DNA of 64,000 bases from Gracilinema caldarium DSM 7334 (GCF_000219725.1 NC_015732.1:2484972-2548971), one strand, 5' to 3'. Counted from the first letter of the stretch, positions 34,976 through 50,990 are shown. Numbers and translations are program-made. The notes: generated by a model not told the origin, from the sequence alone.

Positions 34976-36031
34976 TTAGAAGATCCTATGAGAGTTCACC
35001 GGCAATATGGTAACCGGCAGACGGACAATTTCCGGTTCTATTGGATGCACCGTTCCGGTGGAAGGGATCCTTTTTACTTCATCAATTTGTATGAGAATCC
35101 GTTCAGCCGCCAGCCGTCCCAAACCAGCTATATCCTGAGCTGCTATATATTTACAGAAAGGCAAGAAGGCCGAATAAGCTGTTTGATCAAAAGCAGCAAC
35201 TGCGAAGGAAGGTAAAGGATAACCCTGTTTAATGTCTTCCAAAAGGCGCCGCTGCATTCCCAGATGCACCAAAAGGTTCACCGCCACCAGGGCTTCCGGA
35301 GGATTCCGGCTTTGCAGTAGTTCATCCATCCGCTGATACCCGTCGCTTACCCCCATACCCCCTAATCGGATCAGGTCGCCCTCCACAGAAAGCCCCGCCT
35401 CAGCCATAGCCCGGCCATAACCGGCAAGCCGTTCCCGGGCAGTCGAAATGCTGATATCTCCCCCGACAAAAGCAATCCGGGAATATCCATCCTGGATTAA
35501 GGCCCGAGTAAGGGCCGCCGATCCTGTTTCATTTTCCGAGAGCACCGCACCAAGGGAACAGCCTTCCACAAGCCGATCCACCAGCAGGATGGGCATACCC
35601 TGACAGGCTAAGTGCTGCAGGTGGTCTCCCTGGGATCCTGCCGGAATGACGATGATCCCATCCACCAGACGTTCCGCAAAAAGGGAAATCCGCTTTTGTT
35701 CTTCCTCCACCGAATTGGAAGAAGAAGCAACAAGAAGGGTATATCCTGCCTGTTCAAGGATGCAGTCCATAGCTTCGGTGAGTTCCATAAAAAAATCGTT
35801 AGACAGTTCCGGAGCAATCACCGCTACGGTCTTGGTGGATTTTGTTTTTAGACTCCGGGCTACATGGTTTATCGTAAAATGCAACTCTTCTGCAGCAGTA
35901 AGAACTTTCTGACGGGTTTCCGCCGTTACCAGATGGGAAAGGTCCGGATCAAAGCAACGGGAAACCGTGGCTGTAGAAACCCCTGCCAGGGCCGCTACAT
36001 CCCGGACCGTGGCATGTTGCCTGCGGCTCAC
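34976..36031 (-). CDS. LacI family transcriptional regulator
   Basis: HTH ATVRDVAALAGVSTATVSRCF plus a sugar-binding-like domain. ATGA-type overlap with the upstream AEC gene. Confidence 0.85.
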   Translation of the reverse strand: MSRRQHATVRDVAALAGVSTATVSRCFDPDLSHLVTAETRQKVLTAAEELHFTINHVARSLKTKSTKTVAVIAPELSNDFFMELTEAMDCILEQAGYTLLVASSSNSVEEEQKRISLFAERLVDGIIVIPAGSQGDHLQHLACQGMPILLVDRLVEGCSLGAVLSENETGSAALTRALIQDGYSRIAFVGGDISISTARERLAGYGRAMAEAGLSVEGDLIRLGGMGVSDGYQRMDELLQSRNPPEALVAVNLLVHLGMQRRLLEDIKQGYPLPSFAVAAFDQTAYSAFLPFCKYIAAQDIAGLGRLAAERILIQIDEVKRIPSTGTVHPIEPEIVRLPVTILPVNSHRIF

Positions 36032-37043: not shown

Positions 37044-37481
37044 TCATCGAGATACTGGAATAACACCTTTTTTTAGAATGATATTCCCGTATTTTACGGT
37101 TTCACCGGTCATAACCACCGCGAAGGCCTTTTTTGCCCTTTCATAAAAAGCAAATCGCTCCATCCGTTCAGTAGGAGGAGTTCCAGGCCAGCGACGGTCG
37201 ATAACCTCCCGGTAAGAACGTTCAACTGAAAGATCAAGTTCGTCCCCAGGAACTGGTTGCATCATAACAACCGGATGTTCCACATAGGAATCCAGATTGA
37301 TCAACGCAAGTATGCCATCCAACAGGTCGGGAATCCTCAATCCATCAGCCCGTATCACCCTTGAATTAAGGGAATCACCAGTAAAAAAAGCATCGGCCAG
37401 CACTATTTCGTCACCATGTCCCATCCGGAAGAGAGTATCCAATAGATCAGGGCCAATTACCGGGGAAATACCAATAAGCAT
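37044..37481 (-). CDS. fucU: L-fucose mutarotase (RbsD/FucU family)
   Basis: The 146-aa product aligns along its length with E. coli FucU (GISPVIGPDLLDTLFRMGHGDEIVLADAFF, IRADGL, FAFYERAKKAFAVVMTGE, KYGNIILKKGV). An AGGAGG RBS lies 6 nt before the ATG at 37481. Confidence 0.88.
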   Translation of the reverse strand: MLIGISPVIGPDLLDTLFRMGHGDEIVLADAFFTGDSLNSRVIRADGLRIPDLLDGILALINLDSYVEHPVVMMQPVPGDELDLSVERSYREVIDRRWPGTPPTERMERFAFYERAKKAFAVVMTGETVKYGNIILKKGVIPVSR

Positions 37482-37554
37482 AACTACCTCCTGTATGATA
37501 GTATCATCAGCCTGAAATAAGGAATTGTCAAGCAAAAATGTAATCGATTACATT

Positions 37555-37941
37555 TTATGTACAAGTCTGGTATATGAAAACAGACACTTCAGGGGCGGAT
37601 ATGGTAGACATCGTAGGTTCCATCCAGACCTTTAAAGGCATGGGTGGATCGAAACACCCTGAATACCGGCTGCCATAGTAACCATAGTTCCAAGTTAAAT
37701 AATACTCACGCAGAGCCTGCTGGGCTTCGATTGCGACTTGAATGGTATGGCGGGAGTCGATTAAAAAGCCCATGACCGCATCCCCAATGGTTTTGACCGG
37801 AAGGCCATTATATTTTTCAATGTATTTAAAAAGTATCCTAAAATGTTCCCGTACAAGACCAACGGCTTTGGCATCCCCTAAATCGGAATACAATCTGGTT
37901 GAACCTTTTATATCGATAAACAGGATGGTACTGATCATCAA
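37555..37941 (-). CDS. truncated class III nucleotidyl cyclase (CHD) domain ORF, 128 aa; likely a decayed gene
   Basis: The N-terminal half has CHD motifs (ILFIDIKGSTRL, KTIGDAVMGF). The C-terminal half lacks the second catalytic region and looks frameshifted. Confidence 0.4.
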   Translation of the reverse strand: MMISTILFIDIKGSTRLYSDLGDAKAVGLVREHFRILFKYIEKYNGLPVKTIGDAVMGFLIDSRHTIQVAIEAQQALREYYLTWNYGYYGSRYSGCFDPPMPLKVWMEPTMSTISAPEVSVFIYQTCT

Positions 37942-38045: not shown

Positions 38046-39308
38046 TTATATTGCAGGCCAGTGTTCCAGCAGGTACTGTTCCGCTTCTGCATTCCAGAGC
38101 CCTTGGTACTTATCGCAGAGCACAGCTAAGCGTGCATACCGTGCATCTGTTTCCTCCAGCTGTTTAAAATCGGTAATCGCAGTCATCGGCATAGAGATCC
38201 CTGTATAGACAAGTTTTTTCCCCGCAGGCTTATCCGGCAGATGCAGGGTTGCCTCAGCGGCACTGTCCAGGCCTCCCACATGGGTAACCATAACCGCCGG
38301 GTTAATACGTCCCTGTTCCGAGAGACTCAGGGCTTCCCGCATATCATCTGTGTTGCCGCCAGTGGTCCCTACAATATGGGTTGCACCATAATGGATATTA
38401 TAAAAATTCACTTTGGCACTGAACTGGGAATCCACAGGGCCGGCAAAGAAATTAAGACATCCGTCTTTACCCAGAATTGCGTCCCCCTGCTCTACGACAG
38501 GCGCTACCGGGGCAAACACAAAGACATCATCATAACCAGTACCCTCATTCAGCTCGATAAGCCGAGCCACCGGATCAGAGATCGTGGCGGTATTGATGAA
38601 CACCAGGTCCACACCCCGCTTTTTCTGCTCCGCTGGGGGAAATAAAGAGGCAGCCCGGGCCAAACGGCCATCATCAATATCGGTAACCACCAGACGACGG
38701 GGTCGGTGTTCTAACTGTAGGGCATAACTGATGGCTCCTAGCCCCATCGGCCCGGCTCCGGCAAGAATGGCCATGGTCCCTCCGGGCAGGGTACCCATCT
38801 TGTGTTCATAACTACCCATGGTGGTATGATAACTTGCATGGAAAGCTCCGATAATGCAGGACATGGGTTCTGCCAGGGATGCCATAAAAAAAGCATCTCC
38901 CTTATACTCTAAGAGACAATCCAGTTCCATGACTTCATGGGGCATAATAGCATAGGTCGCCGCTCCACCACAGTACCGGTAGGAATAACCAGGTGAAGCC
39001 ATGCTACCCTTATAATTCAGCGCAGGCTGTAGGGCAAATTTTGCCCCAACCTTATAGCGATGGGCCCATTTAGCACCAACCTTTTCAATAATTCCTGCAG
39101 TTTCATGACCTACAATGATTGGTTCTTGTGCTATATTTTTAGGCACCCGTTTATGGTCACTTCCAAGTTTTGCAGCCTTATAGGTGGACATACAGATAGA
39201 ATCAGTAATAATTTTTACCAGTATTTCATCATCCTGAATCTCAGGAAGTTCAAATTCTTCCAGACGTAAATCCATTTTGCCATAGAGGCGCACCGCCTTC
39301 GTTTTCAT
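38046..39308 (-). CDS. zinc-dependent medium-chain dehydrogenase, 420 aa (SorE/GatD-like polyol-phosphate or ketose-phosphate dehydrogenase)
   Basis: GroES-like N-terminus with Cys/His zinc ligands (DSICMSTYKAAKLG, GHETAG) and a Rossmann motif (AGAGPMGLGAISYAL). Last gene of the PTS operon, overlapping the kinase gene. Confidence 0.7.
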   Translation of the reverse strand: MKTKAVRLYGKMDLRLEEFELPEIQDDEILVKIITDSICMSTYKAAKLGSDHKRVPKNIAQEPIIVGHETAGIIEKVGAKWAHRYKVGAKFALQPALNYKGSMASPGYSYRYCGGAATYAIMPHEVMELDCLLEYKGDAFFMASLAEPMSCIIGAFHASYHTTMGSYEHKMGTLPGGTMAILAGAGPMGLGAISYALQLEHRPRRLVVTDIDDGRLARAASLFPPAEQKKRGVDLVFINTATISDPVARLIELNEGTGYDDVFVFAPVAPVVEQGDAILGKDGCLNFFAGPVDSQFSAKVNFYNIHYGATHIVGTTGGNTDDMREALSLSEQGRINPAVMVTHVGGLDSAAEATLHLPDKPAGKKLVYTGISMPMTAITDFKQLEETDARYARLAVLCDKYQGLWNAEAEQYLLEHWPAI

Positions 39309-40273
39309 AGTTCCTCCTCAATTTCATGAACCTGTACTTGTTGAGTATAATAATGCAGGGCTTCTCTTGTAGGGACCGCAGTACCTTCCGTAGTAACCGC
39401 TGCGGTTCCTGCTCCAACTGCGTTGCGGATCATGTTGTGCAAGGGATCCTCCCGCTGCAAACACAGGGCCAGCGCAGCCACCATAGCATCCCCTGCTCCT
39501 ACAGTACTTTTAGGTTGTACCGGGATGCCTTCGGCAAATAGGACGGCCTTCTCATGTACTAAGAGGGCCCCTTGGGAACCCAGGGAAACAACTATTAGTT
39601 CCACTCCTTGTGCCAGCAAGGCCCGGCATGCATAAGCCATTTCACCAAGCCGAGGTTTGTCTTCCTTACGGAAAGAACGGCCGAATAACCGCTCTAATTC
39701 ATCAATATTGGGCTTAACAAGGGTTGGCCCAACTTCCAAACCTAAACGGAGCGATTCTCCATCTGCATCCAGTATGGTTCGAGCTCCCAGGGATCGGGCC
39801 TTTAGGATCAGCCTTCGATACATATCTGGAGGGGTGCCTCTTCCAATACTGCCGGAAAAGACAAATATGGTTTCTGGACTAGCTTCAGAAAACAGGATAG
39901 CTTCCAATGCAGTTAAGGCCTTTTCCGATATGAGCGGCCCCTGATCATTGATATCCGTATGGGTGTGGTTAAGCGGATCGACAATTTTCATATTCGTCCT
40001 TGTTTCTCCCGGCACAGATACAAAGCGGTGTTCAATCCCACGTTCATCCAAATAGGTCTTAATAAAATTGCCTGCTGTACCTGCGATAACACCAAAAGCA
40101 GTACTTGTCCCCCCAAAGCCGTGTATCGATTTTGATACGTTAATTCCCTTACCCCCTGCATCGAGTCTTGAGGTACTGATACGATTTACCTGGTTTAAGG
40201 CAAAACCTTCTATTTCGACGGTCCGATCCACTGCAGGGTTTAAGGTAAGGGTACGAATCTTGCGATTATTCAT
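39305..40273 (-). CDS. 1-phosphofructokinase/tagatose-6-phosphate kinase family (PfkB) sugar-phosphate kinase
   Basis: FruK/LacC-like N-terminus (IRTLTLNPAVDRT, AGGKGINVSK) and a C-terminal GAGDAMVAAL anion hole. The start at 40273 overlaps the HPr stop. Confidence 0.8.
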   Translation of the reverse strand: MNNRKIRTLTLNPAVDRTVEIEGFALNQVNRISTSRLDAGGKGINVSKSIHGFGGTSTAFGVIAGTAGNFIKTYLDERGIEHRFVSVPGETRTNMKIVDPLNHTHTDINDQGPLISEKALTALEAILFSEASPETIFVFSGSIGRGTPPDMYRRLILKARSLGARTILDADGESLRLGLEVGPTLVKPNIDELERLFGRSFRKEDKPRLGEMAYACRALLAQGVELIVVSLGSQGALLVHEKAVLFAEGIPVQPKSTVGAGDAMVAALALCLQREDPLHNMIRNAVGAGTAAVTTEGTAVPTREALHYYTQQVQVHEIEEEL

Positions 40274-40535
40274 GATGAATAGCCTCAAAGAAAGCGCCGA
40301 GGACTTCCTGGGCTTTATCTTCTTCATCTCCTGATATTTCCAGGGTTACCTGTTCCTGATATTTCACACCCAGGGTAAGCATGTGCAGAAGACTTTTGCC
40401 ATTAATCACCTTGTCCCCTTTAATAACCGTAACTTGACAATCAGGAAACTGTTCGTTTGCAGTATCCACAAAGAGGCGGGCAGGCCGGGTATGGAACCCC
40501 GTAGGATTTATAATGGTATAGGTTTTACGATTCAT
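40266..40535 (-). CDS. ptsH: phosphocarrier protein HPr
   Basis: The 89-aa product has the active-site His15 context (GFHTRPA) and regulatory Ser46 context (GKSLLHMLTLG). Confidence 0.88.
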   Translation of the reverse strand: MNRKTYTIINPTGFHTRPARLFVDTANEQFPDCQVTVIKGDKVINGKSLLHMLTLGVKYQEQVTLEISGDEEDKAQEVLGAFFEAIHHE

Positions 40536-42250
40536 GATAAAACTCCTTTCATATAGGTATAAATTGCTTCAGAACTTTCCATTGTGCTTGCCTGCGAAGC
40601 CCATTGGGCTGCCTCATGTAAGGTGATATGAGCTAAACGGGATCGAATCTTAGGAATTGATGCAGAACCCATACTAAGTTCAGTAATACCCAGCCCGATA
40701 AAGAGGGGAAAGAGTTCCGGATCTCCTGCGAGTTCTCCACATACACCGATCCAGATGCCATGAGCTCGTGCAGCTTTCGCGGCCAGCTCTATAAGCTGTA
40801 AAACCGCAGGAGTTAAACCCTGATGCAGGTACGTCAGGGACCGGTTCATACGATCAGCGGCCATGGTGTATTGGGTTAAATCATTGGTACCTACGCTGAA
40901 GAAATCAACCTCTTGGGCAAAATGATTTGCCAGGAGAGCCGCGGAGGGAATTTCTATCATTATACCCAATTCCCAGGAATCGGAAATGGATATGCCACTT
41001 TGTTGTAAATATGTAGTTTCTTCTGCAATGATCTTTTTAGCCGCCCTTAACTCTTCAAGGGTTGCGATCATAGGAAGTAAAATTCTGAGCTTTCCAAAGC
41101 TACTGGCTCTGAGCAGAGCCCGGATCTGGGTCCGAAAGAGCGTTTCTTTCTGTAGGCAAAGCCGGATTGCCCGAACTCCAAGGAATGGATTTGCTTCTTG
41201 TTCAAGCTCTATATAGGGAATCTGCTTATCTCCCCCTACATCGAGAGTCCGGATGACTACTGGTTTGCCCTTCATCCGCTGTAAAACAAATTTATAAACC
41301 TCGAACTGCTCATCTTCAGATGGCATGGATGGCCGGTCCATAAACATGAATTCGGTTCTGAAAAGTCCTATGCCATCGGCCCCATTGGTCAGCACCCCAT
41401 CCAAATCTTGTAAGCTACCGATATTGGCGGCGATTTCTATCGGTACACCATCTCTGGTTACCGAAGGCTTCCCTGCATAATGACGAATCAGTGACTGTTC
41501 TTCGATATAGGCACTGCGTTTCTGTTCATATTCTGAAAGGATATCCGCATGAGGATTGATAATCACTGTGCCGGTTATTCCATCTACAATAATAGAGCTC
41601 CCTTCATGAAGGTCTGGCAGGGGGCCTAATCCAACAACCGCAGGAATTCCTAACGAACGGGCCAGAATACTTGAATGAGACAGTGCACTGCCTCCTTCAG
41701 TAATAAAGGCAAGCACCATAGCTCGATCCAATGAGGCAGTTTCAGAAGGGGTCAGATCTTTCGCTGCAACAATCGAAGGTTGCTGTAAATGCAGGGTTCC
41801 TAGCTCATCACCCTGGATATTTTGAACAAGACGATGCACAATATCCTCTATATCATTGATACGCCCCATAAAGAGTTCATCCTGCACCTGGCGTAAAAGT
41901 TCAATAAACAGGTCCCCCGTTTCTTTTACAGCCATGACTGCGCTTTTGTGTTCATCAGAAATTTTTTTTCTAATCTCCGCCAAAAACTCAGGATCCCGTA
42001 AAATCGAAAGATGACTCGCAAATATTTCTGCTTTTTCGGTACCTAATTCTGCTTGTGTCTTATCCCGTAAGAATGTAACCTGTTCTTTGGCCTGTTCCAA
42101 AGCTTTTGTAAAATGTTGCCACTCCACTTCCGGACTATTCGCACAGAGCTCTGGGCTCTGTTGTTGTGTAGTTTTGGTTGGTTCGATGAAATAAACTGGC
42201 CCTATGGCCACTCCCGGGGAAGCAGGAATCCCCTGCAAGGTAACAGTCAT
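40532..42250 (-). CDS. ptsI: phosphoenolpyruvate-protein phosphotransferase (PTS enzyme I)
   Basis: 572 aa with the EI phospho-His region (GGSALSHSSILARSLGIPAVVG) and a PEP-utilising C-terminal domain (FFSVGTNDLTQY). Confidence 0.9.
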   Translation of the reverse strand: MTVTLQGIPASPGVAIGPVYFIEPTKTTQQQSPELCANSPEVEWQHFTKALEQAKEQVTFLRDKTQAELGTEKAEIFASHLSILRDPEFLAEIRKKISDEHKSAVMAVKETGDLFIELLRQVQDELFMGRINDIEDIVHRLVQNIQGDELGTLHLQQPSIVAAKDLTPSETASLDRAMVLAFITEGGSALSHSSILARSLGIPAVVGLGPLPDLHEGSSIIVDGITGTVIINPHADILSEYEQKRSAYIEEQSLIRHYAGKPSVTRDGVPIEIAANIGSLQDLDGVLTNGADGIGLFRTEFMFMDRPSMPSEDEQFEVYKFVLQRMKGKPVVIRTLDVGGDKQIPYIELEQEANPFLGVRAIRLCLQKETLFRTQIRALLRASSFGKLRILLPMIATLEELRAAKKIIAEETTYLQQSGISISDSWELGIMIEIPSAALLANHFAQEVDFFSVGTNDLTQYTMAADRMNRSLTYLHQGLTPAVLQLIELAAKAARAHGIWIGVCGELAGDPELFPLFIGLGITELSMGSASIPKIRSRLAHITLHEAAQWASQASTMESSEAIYTYMKGVLS

Positions 42251-42693
42251 TATTGTTTCTCCATTGTCCTGATTACATCCATTATTTCTTTAGTACTCTG
42301 GGCTTTTAGCATCTTATTTAGTTTAGCATCGTCGATGCAAATCTGAGCAATGTTGGTAAGAAGGTCGATATGTTCATTTCCTTGAGCGGCCACAGCAATA
42401 AGCAATTTTGCTATCCGGCCCTTGCCAAAATCGACACCTCCAGGAACCTGAATAATCGCTAATCCAGTCTTTTTCACCAGGGGTTTAGCAGCTTCGGTTC
42501 CATGGGGCACCGCCACACCATTCCCAACATAGGTCGTTGAGATACTGTCCCGCTGGACCATTGCATCAACATATCCCGGTTCTATATACCCCGTCTTTAA
42601 CAGCAGTTCCCCGCACGCACGGATTGCTTCATCCTTACTGGTAAAACAAGCATTCAATCTAATGTTGTTTTCTGAAAGCATCGCTTCATACAT
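42250..42693 (-). CDS. PTS EIIA component, mannitol/fructose (EIIA-2) family
   Basis: EIIA-2 fold with the His-containing GVAVPHGT motif. An AAGGAGG RBS precedes the ATG at 42693; the longer track ORF overlapping the regulator is rejected. Confidence 0.8.
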   Translation of the reverse strand: MYEAMLSENNIRLNACFTSKDEAIRACGELLLKTGYIEPGYVDAMVQRDSISTTYVGNGVAVPHGTEAAKPLVKKTGLAIIQVPGGVDFGKGRIAKLLIAVAAQGNEHIDLLTNIAQICIDDAKLNKMLKAQSTKEIMDVIRTMEKQ

Positions 42694-42754
42694 ACTCTGA
42701 TCCTCCTTAGCCCAAATTGAGTAATTGGGCACCTCAAAAAAATCGGTTGGATTT

Positions 42755-44812
42755 TTAAAAGCGCTTATAAAAACTCCTGATATGTTGTTCTGTTTCCTGT
42801 TCCAGATACTCAAGTATAGTAGTATCCAAAAGTGAAACACTTATTTCATTTAGAAGGGACAGATCCCGGTCATTCAGGTTCTGTGGTGCAAGCATCAACA
42901 GTATTGTTCTCGGGGCAGATGACCACTGCACAGCATCCACAACTAGGGGTTCTCTAAGTCGATGAATGGTAAAACAGGGCCTGGTGACGGCTGTACTGCG
43001 GGCATGTAAAAACAAAGAGCGGTTATCGGGCAATAAAATCCCATGATCGGTTGATCGCTGGGCCAGTGCTGCAAAAGCCGCTTCCTCATCGTTTATACAA
43101 CCCAGACCCTTGCATGCATATATAAGTTGTTGTAAAACTTCATTCCAATCCTTCCCATAGGAACAGGATGTAAATACGAAAATATGATCAAAAATAGTTT
43201 CTTTCGGTAGATGAACGGTATCAGCCTGACAAGATGCAGGAATGGGTGTCACAACTGGAGCTGTTCGAGAATGTTCCGGATGCTCCCTCTGTTTGATCTT
43301 ATCCTTTGCGTTCAAGTAGTTTCTGATCAGCTTTACGCCCTCATCAGATAAGAGGGGTTCCACTAATACATAGCTCCCTTGCGGGATTGGTAATGGGATG
43401 GTTGAAATAAGAATATCCCACCCTTCTAAAGACATGGTTTGAATATCAAACCATGATACATTCACAATAAGCTCAATCTCCGGGATCTTCTCCCGCAACC
43501 GGCTTGCGAGCATATTGGCACTGCCGATACCTGCAGAACACACAACCAGGGCTCGATATCGTCTGCGCTCCTGGGTTCTACGCGAGAGGGCCGCACCGAA
43601 ATGGAGTACCAGGTAACCTACCTCATCATCAGGCACCCTGAGGCTGGGGAACAATTCATGCACAATATGAGACAATATTTCAAATAACGACCCATATTCC
43701 TCTTTGATACGATGCAAGAGGGGGTTTTTAATTGGTAGGTTATGTTGTAAGCGATACAGGGCGGGCACCCAATGGGCCAATAATCCATCACGCAGGATCC
43801 GATCTTCACTGAGTCCCTGCCCTAATGTTTCTTCACATTTCTGAATGAGGAGAGTGATTTCCGGAAGCACCTGCAGATTATCCGCAAGGAGTGTTTTGCC
43901 AAGCCGCTCCTGATGAGCGCCCCGAAGAAACCGTTCTATCGCTTCCTGTTCTGCATCATCAACAGGGATCGAAAAGTGGGAAAACATTGCAGTCAGGGCT
44001 GCCCGTGCAATACGGCAGACCTCTTCATCGCTCACCTGCTTCAGTTCTTGCGTCACAACAGGAAGCATATAGCCAGATTTGCGTCGTACAGCCGCCACAG
44101 CAAGTACCAAGAGGAGTTGCAAATAATCCTGTGGAGCCATATCGGGCAATAATTCCCGGGAAAGCCCCGAAAGAACATGTTCCGCATACCGAATATACTG
44201 CAGGGGGATAATTCTCAGAGCCAATAGTTCTGCTTCTTCCAGACAGAGACGGGAAAGTGCTGCCTCAGAACGAAGCAGAGCAAGGAGGCCACTCTCACCA
44301 AACAGATCCCATAACAGCATCACCAGCGCTTCCCGTTTCCGGTTTTCACTGCCCTCGAGTCGGAGTCCCATTCCCTTCCGCAGGGTCAACTGAAAACCAT
44401 ACAGGGAAAACCAGGATTGCAGGGTATCCAGATCCCGCCGTATGACTTGGATTGAACTATACAGCTCTTCTGCAAGAGCCGAGAGCTTTATCGCCTCATT
44501 CGATTCCAGAAGCAAGAGACACAGCATTCGCTGTCGTTCTTCCGGGCTTGTATCGCTTGGCACCGATTCCTGTAAGTCATTCCGGCACCGGGTTATACCC
44601 TCAGCATCACCTGCAAGTTTAAGTCCTAGCCCAGGCCGTGCCTGAAGTCGTATACCATAATCCCGCTCAAGATTTCTGGACAAGCTCACCAGTTCACGAT
44701 GCACCGTACGGATACTCACCTTAATCTTCTGGGCAATATGGGCTAGGGTAACCTCACTCGGTTCATCGATGAGAATCTGAAGAATATTCCGTTGTCTCAA
44801 AGTCAGATTCAT
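42755..44812 (-). CDS. mtlR: PRD-domain transcriptional regulator, MtlR/LicR type (HTH + 2 PRD + EIIB-like + EIIA-like)
   Basis: N-terminal HTH (LTLRQRNILQILIDEPSEVTLAHIAQKIKVSIRTVHREL), PRD-type His regions, and a C-terminal EIIB(Gat)-like CSAGIGSANMLA and EIIA-like domain. A GGTGGAG RBS lies before the ATG at 44812. Confidence 0.75.
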   Translation of the reverse strand: MNLTLRQRNILQILIDEPSEVTLAHIAQKIKVSIRTVHRELVSLSRNLERDYGIRLQARPGLGLKLAGDAEGITRCRNDLQESVPSDTSPEERQRMLCLLLLESNEAIKLSALAEELYSSIQVIRRDLDTLQSWFSLYGFQLTLRKGMGLRLEGSENRKREALVMLLWDLFGESGLLALLRSEAALSRLCLEEAELLALRIIPLQYIRYAEHVLSGLSRELLPDMAPQDYLQLLLVLAVAAVRRKSGYMLPVVTQELKQVSDEEVCRIARAALTAMFSHFSIPVDDAEQEAIERFLRGAHQERLGKTLLADNLQVLPEITLLIQKCEETLGQGLSEDRILRDGLLAHWVPALYRLQHNLPIKNPLLHRIKEEYGSLFEILSHIVHELFPSLRVPDDEVGYLVLHFGAALSRRTQERRRYRALVVCSAGIGSANMLASRLREKIPEIELIVNVSWFDIQTMSLEGWDILISTIPLPIPQGSYVLVEPLLSDEGVKLIRNYLNAKDKIKQREHPEHSRTAPVVTPIPASCQADTVHLPKETIFDHIFVFTSCSYGKDWNEVLQQLIYACKGLGCINDEEAAFAALAQRSTDHGILLPDNRSLFLHARSTAVTRPCFTIHRLREPLVVDAVQWSSAPRTILLMLAPQNLNDRDLSLLNEISVSLLDTTILEYLEQETEQHIRSFYKRF

Positions 44813-44854
44813 CGCAATCTCCACCCTAAACCCATACCGATTAATACTACCCGC

Positions 44855-46264
44855 TTATGCCTTTAACTTCTCTACAAGCACATCATATTCTGGACTCTTT
44901 AAAAAGTCATCGATGGAAATATGAACAGCACCTGGCAATATTGAACGGGCCCGTTCTGTCAAAGCTTCATGGGTAATGACGATATCCGCATCTTGAGGCA
45001 GATCGTTAATTGCACAATTGGTCACAGTTATCTGTAGACCTGCTTTCTGAATCTTGGAACGAAGTATCGATGCACCCATAGCACTGGAACCCATACCTGC
45101 ATCACAGGCGAAGACGATCTTTTTTACGCCCTTTTTCTGAGGAATAACATCTACCTTGAGCTTGGAGCCCTTGAAGGCAGCAGTCTGGGCCGCAGCCTGT
45201 TCCAAACCATCCTCAGCTTCATTCTGTTTACCAAACTTCAGGAGCAGATAGGCTACTGCAAAGGATGCTGCAGATGAAAGCAGAACCCCTGTCAGCATCG
45301 GGAACAGTCCCCCCTTGGGAGTCATAGCCAGATAGGCAAAAATGGAACCAGGCGAAGGAGTAGCGACAAGGCCAGCCCCCAGTACCGAGAATGTAAAGGT
45401 ACCGGTCATACCACCTGCAATTGCTGCAAGTATGAGTTTGGGATTCATTAAAATATAGGGGAAGTAAATTTCATGAATGCCGCCCAGGAAATGAATAATA
45501 ATTGCACCGGGGGCAGATTCTTTAGCCATCCCCTTGCCAACAAGCCAATAGGCGACGAGGATTCCAAGTCCAGGACCAGGGTTGGATTCCAGCATAAAGA
45601 TGATGGATTTACCCGCCTCAGTTGCCTGCTGAACACCGATGGGAGCAAGAACACCATGATTAATTGCATTGTTCAGGAAGAGTACTTTACCAGGTTCAAT
45701 AAAAATATTTGCTAGGGGAAGCAGGTTCATAGAAACAATGGACCGAACACCAGCAGCTAAAACATTTGAGATAAACATAACCGCCGGAGCAATAACTACA
45801 TAGGCGATAAGGGCAAGAATGGTACCCAAAATACCCATGGAGAAATTGTTCACCAGCATCTCAAAGCCTACAGGTATCTTACCTTCGAAGAAGGCATCTA
45901 CCTTTTTTAAGCACCATGCGGCGATAGGACCTACAATCATTGCACCAAGGAACATGGGTATACTCGAACCAACAATGATACCCATAACCGCCGCAGCACC
46001 AATTACACCACCGCGAACATCATAGACCATTTTTCCGCCGGTGTATCCAATTAAGAGGGGCAGGAGATAGGTAATCATGGGGCCTACGAGCTTTGCAAAA
46101 GATTCATTAGGTAGCCAGCCTGTCGGAATAAACAATGCAGTAATAAGTCCCCAGGTAATAAAAGCCCCGATGTTTGGCATCACCATGCCGCTTAAAAACC
46201 GCCCGGTCCGCTGGATATGCATGCGGGCACCGGATTGATTCGCTTTTTGTACAGAATCACTCAT
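44855..46264 (-). CDS. mtlA: PTS mannitol-family EIICB permease
   Basis: Collinear with E. coli MtlA EIIC and EIIB, roughly 60% identity by eye (GRFLSGMVMPNIGAFITWGLITALFIPTGWLPNE, HFLGGIHEIYFPY, EIIB motif ACDAGMGSSAMGASILRSKIQKAGL). A GGAGG RBS lies before the ATG at 46264. Confidence 0.88.
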   Translation of the reverse strand: MSDSVQKANQSGARMHIQRTGRFLSGMVMPNIGAFITWGLITALFIPTGWLPNESFAKLVGPMITYLLPLLIGYTGGKMVYDVRGGVIGAAAVMGIIVGSSIPMFLGAMIVGPIAAWCLKKVDAFFEGKIPVGFEMLVNNFSMGILGTILALIAYVVIAPAVMFISNVLAAGVRSIVSMNLLPLANIFIEPGKVLFLNNAINHGVLAPIGVQQATEAGKSIIFMLESNPGPGLGILVAYWLVGKGMAKESAPGAIIIHFLGGIHEIYFPYILMNPKLILAAIAGGMTGTFTFSVLGAGLVATPSPGSIFAYLAMTPKGGLFPMLTGVLLSSAASFAVAYLLLKFGKQNEAEDGLEQAAAQTAAFKGSKLKVDVIPQKKGVKKIVFACDAGMGSSAMGASILRSKIQKAGLQITVTNCAINDLPQDADIVITHEALTERARSILPGAVHISIDDFLKSPEYDVLVEKLKA

Positions 46265-46361
46265 ATTCTGAACCTCCAATACTGGCAGTATATCCGTCTT
46301 CTGTACAGCAGAAATGACAACTTAATGATGTTACGGCAGGAATATTGTTGACAAATTACAT

Positions 46362-49831: not shown

Positions 49832-50018
49832 TTTTTAATCTTTGGTATAGATGGATGAAATTTTCCAAATATTATTCTGTATAAAACATATAGAGACATA
49901 TTGCCCGTCGTATACCCGTCGTATACATAAGTACCCTCAGTTATACAATCTAATTACTTTTGTCATCTTTAACTTGCGCAACATGCATACTCAAGGTAGT
50001 ATAACTGTGGAGGTTTTT

Positions 50019-50990
50019 ATGATTATATGCTGCGGTGAAGCCCTTATCGATATGGTTCCCTATACAACGTCCGATGACATTGATACCTATCGTCCCCTGC
50101 CTGGTGGCAGTCCCTATAACACTGCTATTGCCATAGGCCGGCTGGGCGCTCCGGTCAGTTTTATGGGCCGCCTTTCATCCGACTTTTTTGGAACCATGCT
50201 CGTAGATCGGCTTCGAGCAAACAACGTAGAGACCAATCTCATCGTCCGGTCAACTCAAAACAGCACCCTGGCTTTCGTAAAAATAGAAGCAGGGAAAGAA
50301 CCCCAATACGCCTTTTACACCGAAGGAACCGCTGACCGGTCATTCTCGGTAGAAGATCTGCCAAAAACCTTACCACAGGACCTGCATGGAATTCTTTTTG
50401 GGTCCATATCGATGACCATGGAGCCCGTGGCGAGCACCATAGAAACCTTTATACAATCCCAGAGCAGGCGGAATGATGCCTCTGCACCGGTCATCTCGCT
50501 GGATCCTAACGTCCGTCCTGTAATGATCCATGATCGGGCTCGGTATGTGCAACGTCTTGAATCATGGATAGCCTCTGCCACCATCGTTAAAATTTCCGGC
50601 GCCGATTTGGAATATGTCTACCCATCCCTGTCGCGGGAAGCGGCGCTTGAAAAGGTTCTATCCTTAGGTCCCACCCTGGTGGTGACCACCCTCGGCGCCG
50701 ATGGTGCCCTCGCCATCGGCCGCCGTAGTGACGGCAGCCGCTTCAGTGCCACCGCACCAGTAGTTCCGGTTAAAGTTGCCGACACCATCGGCGCCGGCGA
50801 CACCTTTCACGGAGCCTTATTATCATGGCTGGAACTCAAGGGCAAACTGAACCGGCTCGCCCTGTCAAAGATTTCAGAAGCAGACCTGCATGAAGCCCTC
50901 TTTTTTGCGAATAAGGCAGCTTCTTTGGTCTGTACTAAACATGGCGCAGAGCCTCCCACCATGGCAGAAATGGAAGCGTTGCAGACCTAA
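50019..50990 (+). CDS. PfkB family carbohydrate kinase (fructokinase/2-keto-3-deoxygluconate kinase-like)
   Basis: N-terminal MIICCGEALIDM and C-terminal DTIGAGDTFHGALLS anion-hole motif. A GTGGAGG RBS precedes the ATG at 50019. Confidence 0.8.
   Translation: MIICCGEALIDMVPYTTSDDIDTYRPLPGGSPYNTAIAIGRLGAPVSFMGRLSSDFFGTMLVDRLRANNVETNLIVRSTQNSTLAFVKIEAGKEPQYAFYTEGTADRSFSVEDLPKTLPQDLHGILFGSISMTMEPVASTIETFIQSQSRRNDASAPVISLDPNVRPVMIHDRARYVQRLESWIASATIVKISGADLEYVYPSLSREAALEKVLSLGPTLVVTTLGADGALAIGRRSDGSRFSATAPVVPVKVADTIGAGDTFHGALLSWLELKGKLNRLALSKISEADLHEALFFANKAASLVCTKHGAEPPTMAEMEALQT

Follow-up and report, generated by a model that had tools for sequence, protein, structure and literature searches.

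Gene content of the operon and affinities of its transporter

According to our analysis, a 64,000-nucleotide stretch of the Gracilinema caldarium H1 genome (DSM 7334; GCF_000219725.1, NC_015732.1:2484972-2548971; hereafter, the window) carries seven close-packed open reading frames (ORFs), all on the minus strand and running from position 46264 down to 38046, which encode a phosphotransferase system (PTS) of the mannitol (Mtl) family together with a kinase and a zinc-dependent medium-chain dehydrogenase/reductase (MDR). Each of the seven ORFs has a strong family match among the Pfam and NCBIfam profiles. In order of transcription, they are as follows.

44855 to 46264, minus strand: Mtl-family PTS enzyme IICB (EIICB; mtlA-like), 469 amino acids, AEJ20367; NF011663, TIGR00851
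42755 to 44824, minus strand: MtlR-type PRD regulator; Pfam HTH_11, Mga, PRD, PTS_EIIA_2
42250 to 42693, minus strand: PTS enzyme IIA (EIIA; Mtl/Fru type), probably 147 amino acids; PF00359, 110 bits
40532 to 42250, minus strand: enzyme I (EI; ptsI), 572 amino acids, AEJ20364; TIGR01417
40266 to 40535, minus strand: HPr (ptsH), 89 amino acids; TIGR01003
39305 to 40273, minus strand: PfkB-family hexose-phosphate kinase, 1-phosphofructokinase-like; TIGR03828
38046 to 39308, minus strand: zinc MDR of the YggP/SorE family, 420 amino acids, AEJ20361; ADH_N and ADH_zinc_N domains

The proteins correspond to AEJ20361 to AEJ20367, and the sequences of the MDR, EI, and EIICB are identical to AEJ20361, AEJ20364, and AEJ20367. 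Mechanical ORF extents (44855 to 46279 for EIICB, 42250 to 42840 for EIIA, and 39305 to 40327 for PfkB) place the 5' ends too far upstream; the true starts are likely 46264 (an ATG), 42693, and 40273, because the gene lengths then match those called in relatives, where EIIA, for instance, is called as a 147-amino-acid product. The EIICB start codon is preceded by GGAGG, and adjacent genes either overlap by 1 to 8 nucleotides or are separated by 30 to 61 nucleotides. An initial annotation of the locus had described seven genes forming an Mtl-family PTS operon that brings its own EI and HPr genes as well as an MtlR-type regulator, and we found the ORFs where it had placed them. A scan 3' of the MDR gene gave no convincing terminator, and Rfam returned no matches over the whole window. 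The operon boundaries were set by comparison with Treponema sp. J25 (L084) and a Logan contig (L085), because the flanking genes differ in these relatives, where the seven-gene cassette lies between unrelated flanks. It is also kept as a block in a Spirochaetes metagenome-assembled genome (L002), with flanks different again, which suggests that the cassette moves or gets inserted as a unit. Across the cassette relatives, amino acid identity amounts to 94 to 95% for EIICB, 87 to 89% for the MDR, 69 to 70% for EI, 67% for MtlR, and 64 to 66% for PfkB. The genes are under purifying selection, with dN of 0.04 to 0.31 and saturated dS against two relatives, and dN/dS did not exceed 0.08 in any comparison that allowed its computation.

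The EIICB scores above both mannitol transporter models, NF011663 (688 bits, cut-off 589) and TIGR00851 (547 bits, cut-off 468), and its identity is 61% with E. coli MtlA and 53% with E. coli CmtA. Identity between EIIA and the IIA domain of E. coli MtlA is 40%, the alignment beginning at residue 46 of the mechanical ORF. The general PTS proteins also exceed their family cut-offs, EI reaching 633 bits with TIGR01417 (cut-off 342) and HPr 70 bits with TIGR01003 (cut-off 48), the latter with a GFHTRPA motif containing His15 and a GKS motif resembling the Ser46 site. The regulator has the MtlR-type architecture in Pfam, with an HTH/Mga N terminus, PRD, and a C-terminal EIIA-like domain.

Textbook PTS mannitol catabolism proceeds through MtlA and then MtlD. 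A tblastn search with E. coli MtlD found no homolog in the 64-kb window, and the PfkB kinase and the zinc MDR stand in its place, as the initial annotation had noted. The order EIICB, PRD-type MtlR, and EIIA is the same as in the mtlA-mtlR-mtlF-mtlD operons of Firmicutes (Bacillus, Geobacillus, Clostridium; here L091, L095, L102, L106, L107, and others), whose EIICBs are 56 to 68% identical and interleave with the MDR-linked ones in the tree, and two of these operons (L095 and L129) also contain ptsI and ptsH. The window differs from them in having, instead of the mannitol-1-phosphate 5-dehydrogenase MtlD, the PfkB kinase and the YggP/SorE-type MDR. When metagenomes were scanned with the EIICB and the best 80 loci were kept (56 to 71% identity), MtlD was linked in 52 of them and the MDR in 8 (along with PfkB in 6 of the 8), and 20 were too short to class; the MDR/PfkB-type unit accompanies about one-seventh of the close EIICB relatives whose linkage could be determined. 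The best long match with known neighbors (L091, 68% EIICB identity) has the order mtlA-mtlR-mtlF-mtlD, and L095 (63%) has mtlA-mtlR-mtlF-mtlD-ptsI-ptsH, that is, the architecture of the window but with MtlD for PfkB and the MDR. In a neighbor-joining tree of 116 EIICBs, MtlD-linked and MDR-linked proteins are interleaved and the clade of the window protein is sister to the MtlD-linked L095; therefore, one transporter family has seen repeated exchange of its downstream enzymes. This argues for the same substrate, mannitol, and for PfkB and the MDR as a non-orthologous replacement of MtlD. We read the locus as a hexitol PTS operon complete in itself, most likely serving D-mannitol and built on the mtlA-mtlR-mtlF pattern of Firmicutes. 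The presence of EI and HPr genes in such operons had been deemed uncommon, and it is indeed a minority arrangement: of the 32 PTS-linked MDR loci described below, 6 have PtsI and 9 have HPr, and EI/HPr are present in about 4 of the 52 MtlD-linked ones.

The dehydrogenase and kinase families

Over its full length, the MDR shares 54% identity with E. coli YggP, the product of a gene beside cmtA and cmtB, and over 420 amino acids it shares 44% with the zinc dehydrogenase of the canonical sor operon of L. plantarum. It had been annotated as SorE/GatD-like, of which the likeness to SorE holds but the likeness to GatD does not: with 27.8 bits against a cut-off of 550 for NF007642, we rejected a GatD-like identity and regard GatD as a relative at the superfamily level only. 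No NCBIfam model reaches its cut-off with this protein, which databases label "zinc-binding dehydrogenase" or, by transfer, "L-sorbose 1-phosphate reductase." Residues C39, H68, E69, and E147 are invariant, GxGxxG is kept, and the motifs GAGPMGLGA and VVTDID suggest NAD as the preferred cofactor; the structural-zinc lobe is absent. Among solved structures, sorbitol dehydrogenases, xylitol dehydrogenases, and a ketose reductase come closest. In a profile alignment to the sorbitol dehydrogenase structures, inspected for phosphate-binding residues, HKR of the MDR aligns with HGR of sorbitol dehydrogenase, which is not diagnostic.

SorE reduces L-sorbose-1-phosphate to D-sorbitol-6-phosphate (PMC12817954). 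The SorE proteins of the sor operons of Klebsiella, E. coli, and Lactobacillus share with the window MDR a length of about 420 amino acids, a C-terminal extension, the zinc-ligand and NAD motifs, and a chemistry of ketose-1-phosphates and polyol phosphates. In the Lactobacillus sor operon, the dehydrogenase accompanies a SorC-type regulator, and the divergent side encodes a short-chain dehydrogenase/reductase (SDR) and a Man-family PTS, IIA to IID. SorE works reductively with a Man-family PTS and the SDR sorbitol-6-phosphate dehydrogenase, whereas the window operon has neither of these, and its MDR, associated with an Mtl-family PTS and a kinase, is predicted to work oxidatively. Since SorE, used as the outgroup in the neighbor-joining tree of the MDRs, lies on a long separate branch, the window MDR represents a paralogous YggP-type subfamily and not SorE proper, and it is predicted to be a polyol-phosphate/ketose-1-phosphate oxidoreductase.

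The cmtB-cmtA-yggP-yggF cluster of E. coli K-12, the "cryptic mannitol" PTS, likewise places an Mtl-family EIICB beside a YggP dehydrogenase, with the identities to the window proteins given above. It differs from the window operon in lacking PfkB, the PRD regulator, and EI/HPr, and in having other genes after yggP (NC_000913.3, 3073976 to 3079330; L001), namely, yggF for a class II fructose-1,6-bisphosphatase, fumE/yggD, and yggC for a P-loop NTPase. An enzyme that acts on fructose-1,6-bisphosphate beside YggP fits a fructose-phosphate product. Our literature searches found no report on the function of this cluster.

We surveyed 80 genome loci encoding MDR homologs (59 to 71% identity). An Mtl-type EIICB/EIIA is present at 32 of them, PfkB directly adjoins the MDR in 28 of these 32, and in half of the 32 (16 loci) an MtlR-type regulator occupies the same place as in the window operon. 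The pairing of the MDR and PfkB genes recurs in many anaerobes, and modules of this kind are spread over Bacillota, Actinomycetota, and Spirochaetota. The only genes that recur among the 145 ORFs flanking the 32 PTS-linked modules encode DeoR regulators (9), PtsI (5), HPr (4), and transketolase (3); no aldolase, and specifically no tagatose-bisphosphate aldolase, recurs among them, and tblastn with E. coli MtlD had no match in any of the 32 loci, which fits a product that enters glycolysis directly. The remaining 48 loci are free of the PTS, and in them the MDR is accompanied by E2, E3, and fused E1 components, a protein of unknown family, an SDR, and a rhamnulokinase-like FGGY kinase. In the tree, the PTS-free MDRs form one clean clade; the window protein and YggP lie outside it with the other PTS-linked MDRs. 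Rhamnulokinases produce a ketose-1-phosphate, and we tie the MDR family to ketose-1-phosphates through three independent contexts, namely, the substrate of SorE, the rhamnulokinase-like neighbor, and the 1-phosphofructokinase-like neighbor.

As for the latter, the window kinase passes the 1-phosphofructokinase equivalog TIGR03828 (317.1 bits, cut-off 292), falls below the E. coli-type FruK model NF007068 (160 versus 432), and is far under the LacC models (153 to 167 bits versus cut-offs of 410 to 469) and Pfk-2 (155 versus 353). Its identity to the reference kinases ranges overall from 32 to 38%, with 38% to D. radiodurans FruK, 33% to E. coli FruK, and 33 to 34% to LacC. The top annotated plasmid matches are 1-phosphofructokinases in fructose operons (36 to 41%), with LacC at 32 to 34%. 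In Sporomusaceae loci, the MDR-linked kinase groups with the FruK proteins of E. coli and D. radiodurans, and some related loci combine a DeoR regulator with a FruK-clade kinase.

Predicted route and its alternatives

On these grounds, we hold with about even confidence that mtlD has been displaced by two genes, that ptsI-ptsH has been inserted, and that the route leads from mannitol-1-phosphate through fructose-1-phosphate to fructose-1,6-bisphosphate. By strong homology, the phosphate of phosphoenolpyruvate would pass through EI, HPr, and EIIA to EIICB, and mannitol would be imported as mannitol-1-phosphate, while the MtlR-type regulator, judging from its domain architecture, would activate the promoter according to the PTS phosphorylation state. 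The YggP/SorE-family MDR would then oxidize mannitol-1-phosphate with NAD+ at C2, next to the phosphate ester, to D-fructose-1-phosphate, which would be the SorE reaction reversed and carried out on the C5 epimer. The co-evolving PfkB kinase would phosphorylate fructose-1-phosphate at C6 with ATP, and the resulting fructose-1,6-bisphosphate would be cleaved by the housekeeping aldolase. The net energetics of such a route is that of the MtlD/phosphofructokinase route.

L-Sorbose-1-phosphate and D-fructose-1-phosphate differ at C5 only. With the stereochemistry of SorE at C2, L-sorbose-1-phosphate gives L-gulitol-1-phosphate, which is D-sorbitol-6-phosphate, and by analogy D-fructose-1-phosphate would give D-mannitol-1-phosphate. 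The route through fructose-1-phosphate would explain why the kinase is almost always linked and an aldolase is never needed. Somewhat more tentatively, we propose that the YggP-type MDR is a D-mannitol-1-phosphate 2-dehydrogenase forming fructose-1-phosphate and that it and the separate ketose-1-phosphate kinase clade accompanying it constitute an unrecognized mannitol route. Our literature searches found no report of a mannitol-1-phosphate 2-dehydrogenase activity with fructose-1-phosphate as the product.

The step from fructose-1-phosphate to fructose-1,6-bisphosphate is shared, as predicted, with the fructose operon fruR-fruK-fruA. The window operon differs from it in that the transporter is of the Mtl and not the Fru type and the kinase clade is separate. 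The latter is one of several points that weigh against our proposal. In the neighbor-joining tree, the MDR-adjacent kinases form a clade of their own, apart from the FruK, LacC, and Pfk-2 references; the margin by which the window kinase passes TIGR03828 is small; and its top match in the Protein Data Bank (PDB) is labeled tagatose-6-phosphate kinase, with FruK second, and is therefore ambiguous. The Bacillota FruR box (TGAWWGWTTT) is not clustered in the nine DeoR-type loci, which leaves the proposal without support from regulator sites. Whether the oxidized carbon is C2 or C5 is not legible from the sequence, and literature searches yielded no functional study of YggP, its subfamily, or the MDR/PfkB module. 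Moreover, the cmtBA-yggP cluster of E. coli is regarded as cryptic.

An alternative is a variant in which the MDR would, like GatD and MtlD, oxidize a carbon distal to the phosphate and so yield a ketose-6-phosphate (fructose-6-phosphate from mannitol-1-phosphate or tagatose-6-phosphate from galactitol-1-phosphate), and PfkB would act as a 6-phosphate kinase of the Pfk-2/LacC type, giving the 1,6-bisphosphate. Both the annotation of the top PDB match and the separation of the kinase clade from the FruK references are in line with this variant, which on mannitol likewise ends at fructose-1,6-bisphosphate, so that gene context alone cannot separate the two. Of the MDR's relatives with a defined function, however, SorE is the nearest (44% identity), and it acts beside the phosphate; in addition, the wide failure of the LacC and Pfk-2 models stands against the passing of the 1-phosphofructokinase equivalog. 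Furthermore, a fructose-6-phosphate product would need no dedicated kinase, yet one is linked in nearly all PTS-linked loci, and the tagatose-bisphosphate aldolase expected of the other branch never recurs there. The gat operon itself, which likewise directs a zinc MDR at a PTS-delivered hexitol phosphate, differs from the window in its Gat-family PTS and its GatZ/GatY-type aldolase, both absent here, as well as in the GatD model that the window MDR fails. We consider distal oxidation improbable, and the galactitol/tagatose-like route put forward in the initial annotation is, for the same reasons, the weaker reading.

It is also unlikely that the substrate is not mannitol and that the operon instead serves another hexitol through a diverged Mtl-family permease or a ketose such as fructose; the ketose would arrive as the ketose-1-phosphate, the kinase would carry the main flux, and the MDR would form a reductive side branch. 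To our knowledge, a mannitol role has not been demonstrated for E. coli CmtA, a protein 53% identical to MtlA. In line with such a reading are also the reductive direction of SorE and the reported phenotype of strain H1, which does not use mannitol and ferments D-fructose (PMC3739177); the mannitol-negative phenotype counts against our own proposal as well. On the other side, the EIICB resembles MtlA closely (61% identity) and reaches the cut-offs of the two mannitol models, its MDR-linked relatives are mixed in the tree with MtlD-linked ones, the gene order is that of mtlARFD operons, and none of the 32 loci encodes an enzyme that would process a polyol phosphate formed by reduction. The negative growth test itself may stem from redox balance: mannitol yields one NADH more than glucose, and H1 makes no ethanol (PMC3739177), so that growth in pure culture may be blocked while use beside hydrogen consumers may be possible.

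A cryptic or decaying operon, functionless in present-day H1, would suit the mannitol-negative phenotype (PMC3739177) and the cyclase-domain gene fragment directly downstream, but this reading is very improbable given seven intact ORFs, a dN far under the saturated dS, and the retention of the cassette in Treponema sp. J25, the Logan contig, and the Spirochaetes metagenome-assembled genome.

The component families are all known; new are their combination and the predicted activity. MtlD has been replaced recurrently by a two-gene unit for which literature searches found no functional study. If the route through fructose-1-phosphate is true, it would define a new enzyme activity and provide a better annotation for those genes of gut and digester anaerobes that now bear the names "L-sorbose 1-phosphate reductase" or "zinc-binding dehydrogenase," and the same chemistry would assign a function to E. 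coli YggP and to the "cryptic" CmtAB. In addition, genotype and phenotype are at odds in the G. caldarium type strain, in which a presumptive mannitol operon is present although the organism is reported to be mannitol negative (PMC3739177).

Promoter region, neighboring genes, and PTS-free relatives

Upstream of the EIICB gene lies the following region.

46265 to 46361, minus strand: promoter/leader, with a conserved box TTTGTCAACAATATTCCTGCC at 46334 to 46354, TATACT at 46287 to 46292, GGAGG at 46273 to 46277, and a palindrome at 46299 to 46313

Four elements are shared with three orthologous upstream regions, namely, the box, TTTGTC(A/C)..AATATTC.TG.C; CATTA; GATA(T/C)ACT; and the Shine-Dalgarno sequence. 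The box may, speculatively, be a -35 element or an MtlR site; a promoter-like TTGTCA-18-CATCAT extends from 46354 to 46325. The palindrome CTGTACAG at 46301 to 46308, nested in TTCTG..CAGAA, is present as first annotated, but the regulatory role suggested for it is not supported. An 8-nucleotide palindrome in the 82-nucleotide spacer is about at chance level (expected count of 0.34 per window for the 8-mer), and it is not kept in the alignment of the three orthologous promoters, and on both counts we rejected it as a regulatory site.

In the PTS-free MDR clusters, of which L029:2138-12709 is an example (as are L017, L078, L041, L080, and others among L002 to L081), the MDR gene is found with those of an E2 acyltransferase, an E3 lipoamide dehydrogenase, and a fused E1 alpha/beta protein. 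The SDR is nearest to sorbitol-6-phosphate dehydrogenase and the FGGY kinase to rhamnulokinase, and a 448-amino-acid protein had no match in Pfam, NCBIfam, or the PDB. We speculate that this cluster may represent an uncharacterized 6-deoxyhexose route, in which the MDR and the SDR would shift the carbonyl and the pyruvate dehydrogenase-like complex would cleave a methyl ketone to give acetyl-CoA.

Within the window, a second PfkB-family kinase (49851 to 50990, plus strand, 379 amino acids) is encoded 3.5 kb upstream of the operon; it is nearest to fructokinase and IolC-type kinases, reaches no model cut-off, and is unrelated to the 1-phosphofructokinase subfamily. On the downstream side, an ORF of 128 amino acids (37555 to 37941, minus strand) matches only positions 10 to 63 of the 183 positions of PF00211, the class III adenylate/guanylate cyclase domain, and is probably a gene fragment situated between the PTS operon and a fucose cluster. 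This cluster, further downstream, encodes FucU, a permease, a LacI-type regulator, and FucI. Just 5' of fucU (37044 to 37535), a perfect inverted repeat, AAAATGTAATCGATTACATTTT, spans 37530 to 37555 and is overlapped by a promoter-like site; the LacI-family regulator encoded at 34976 to 36031 probably has its operator here.

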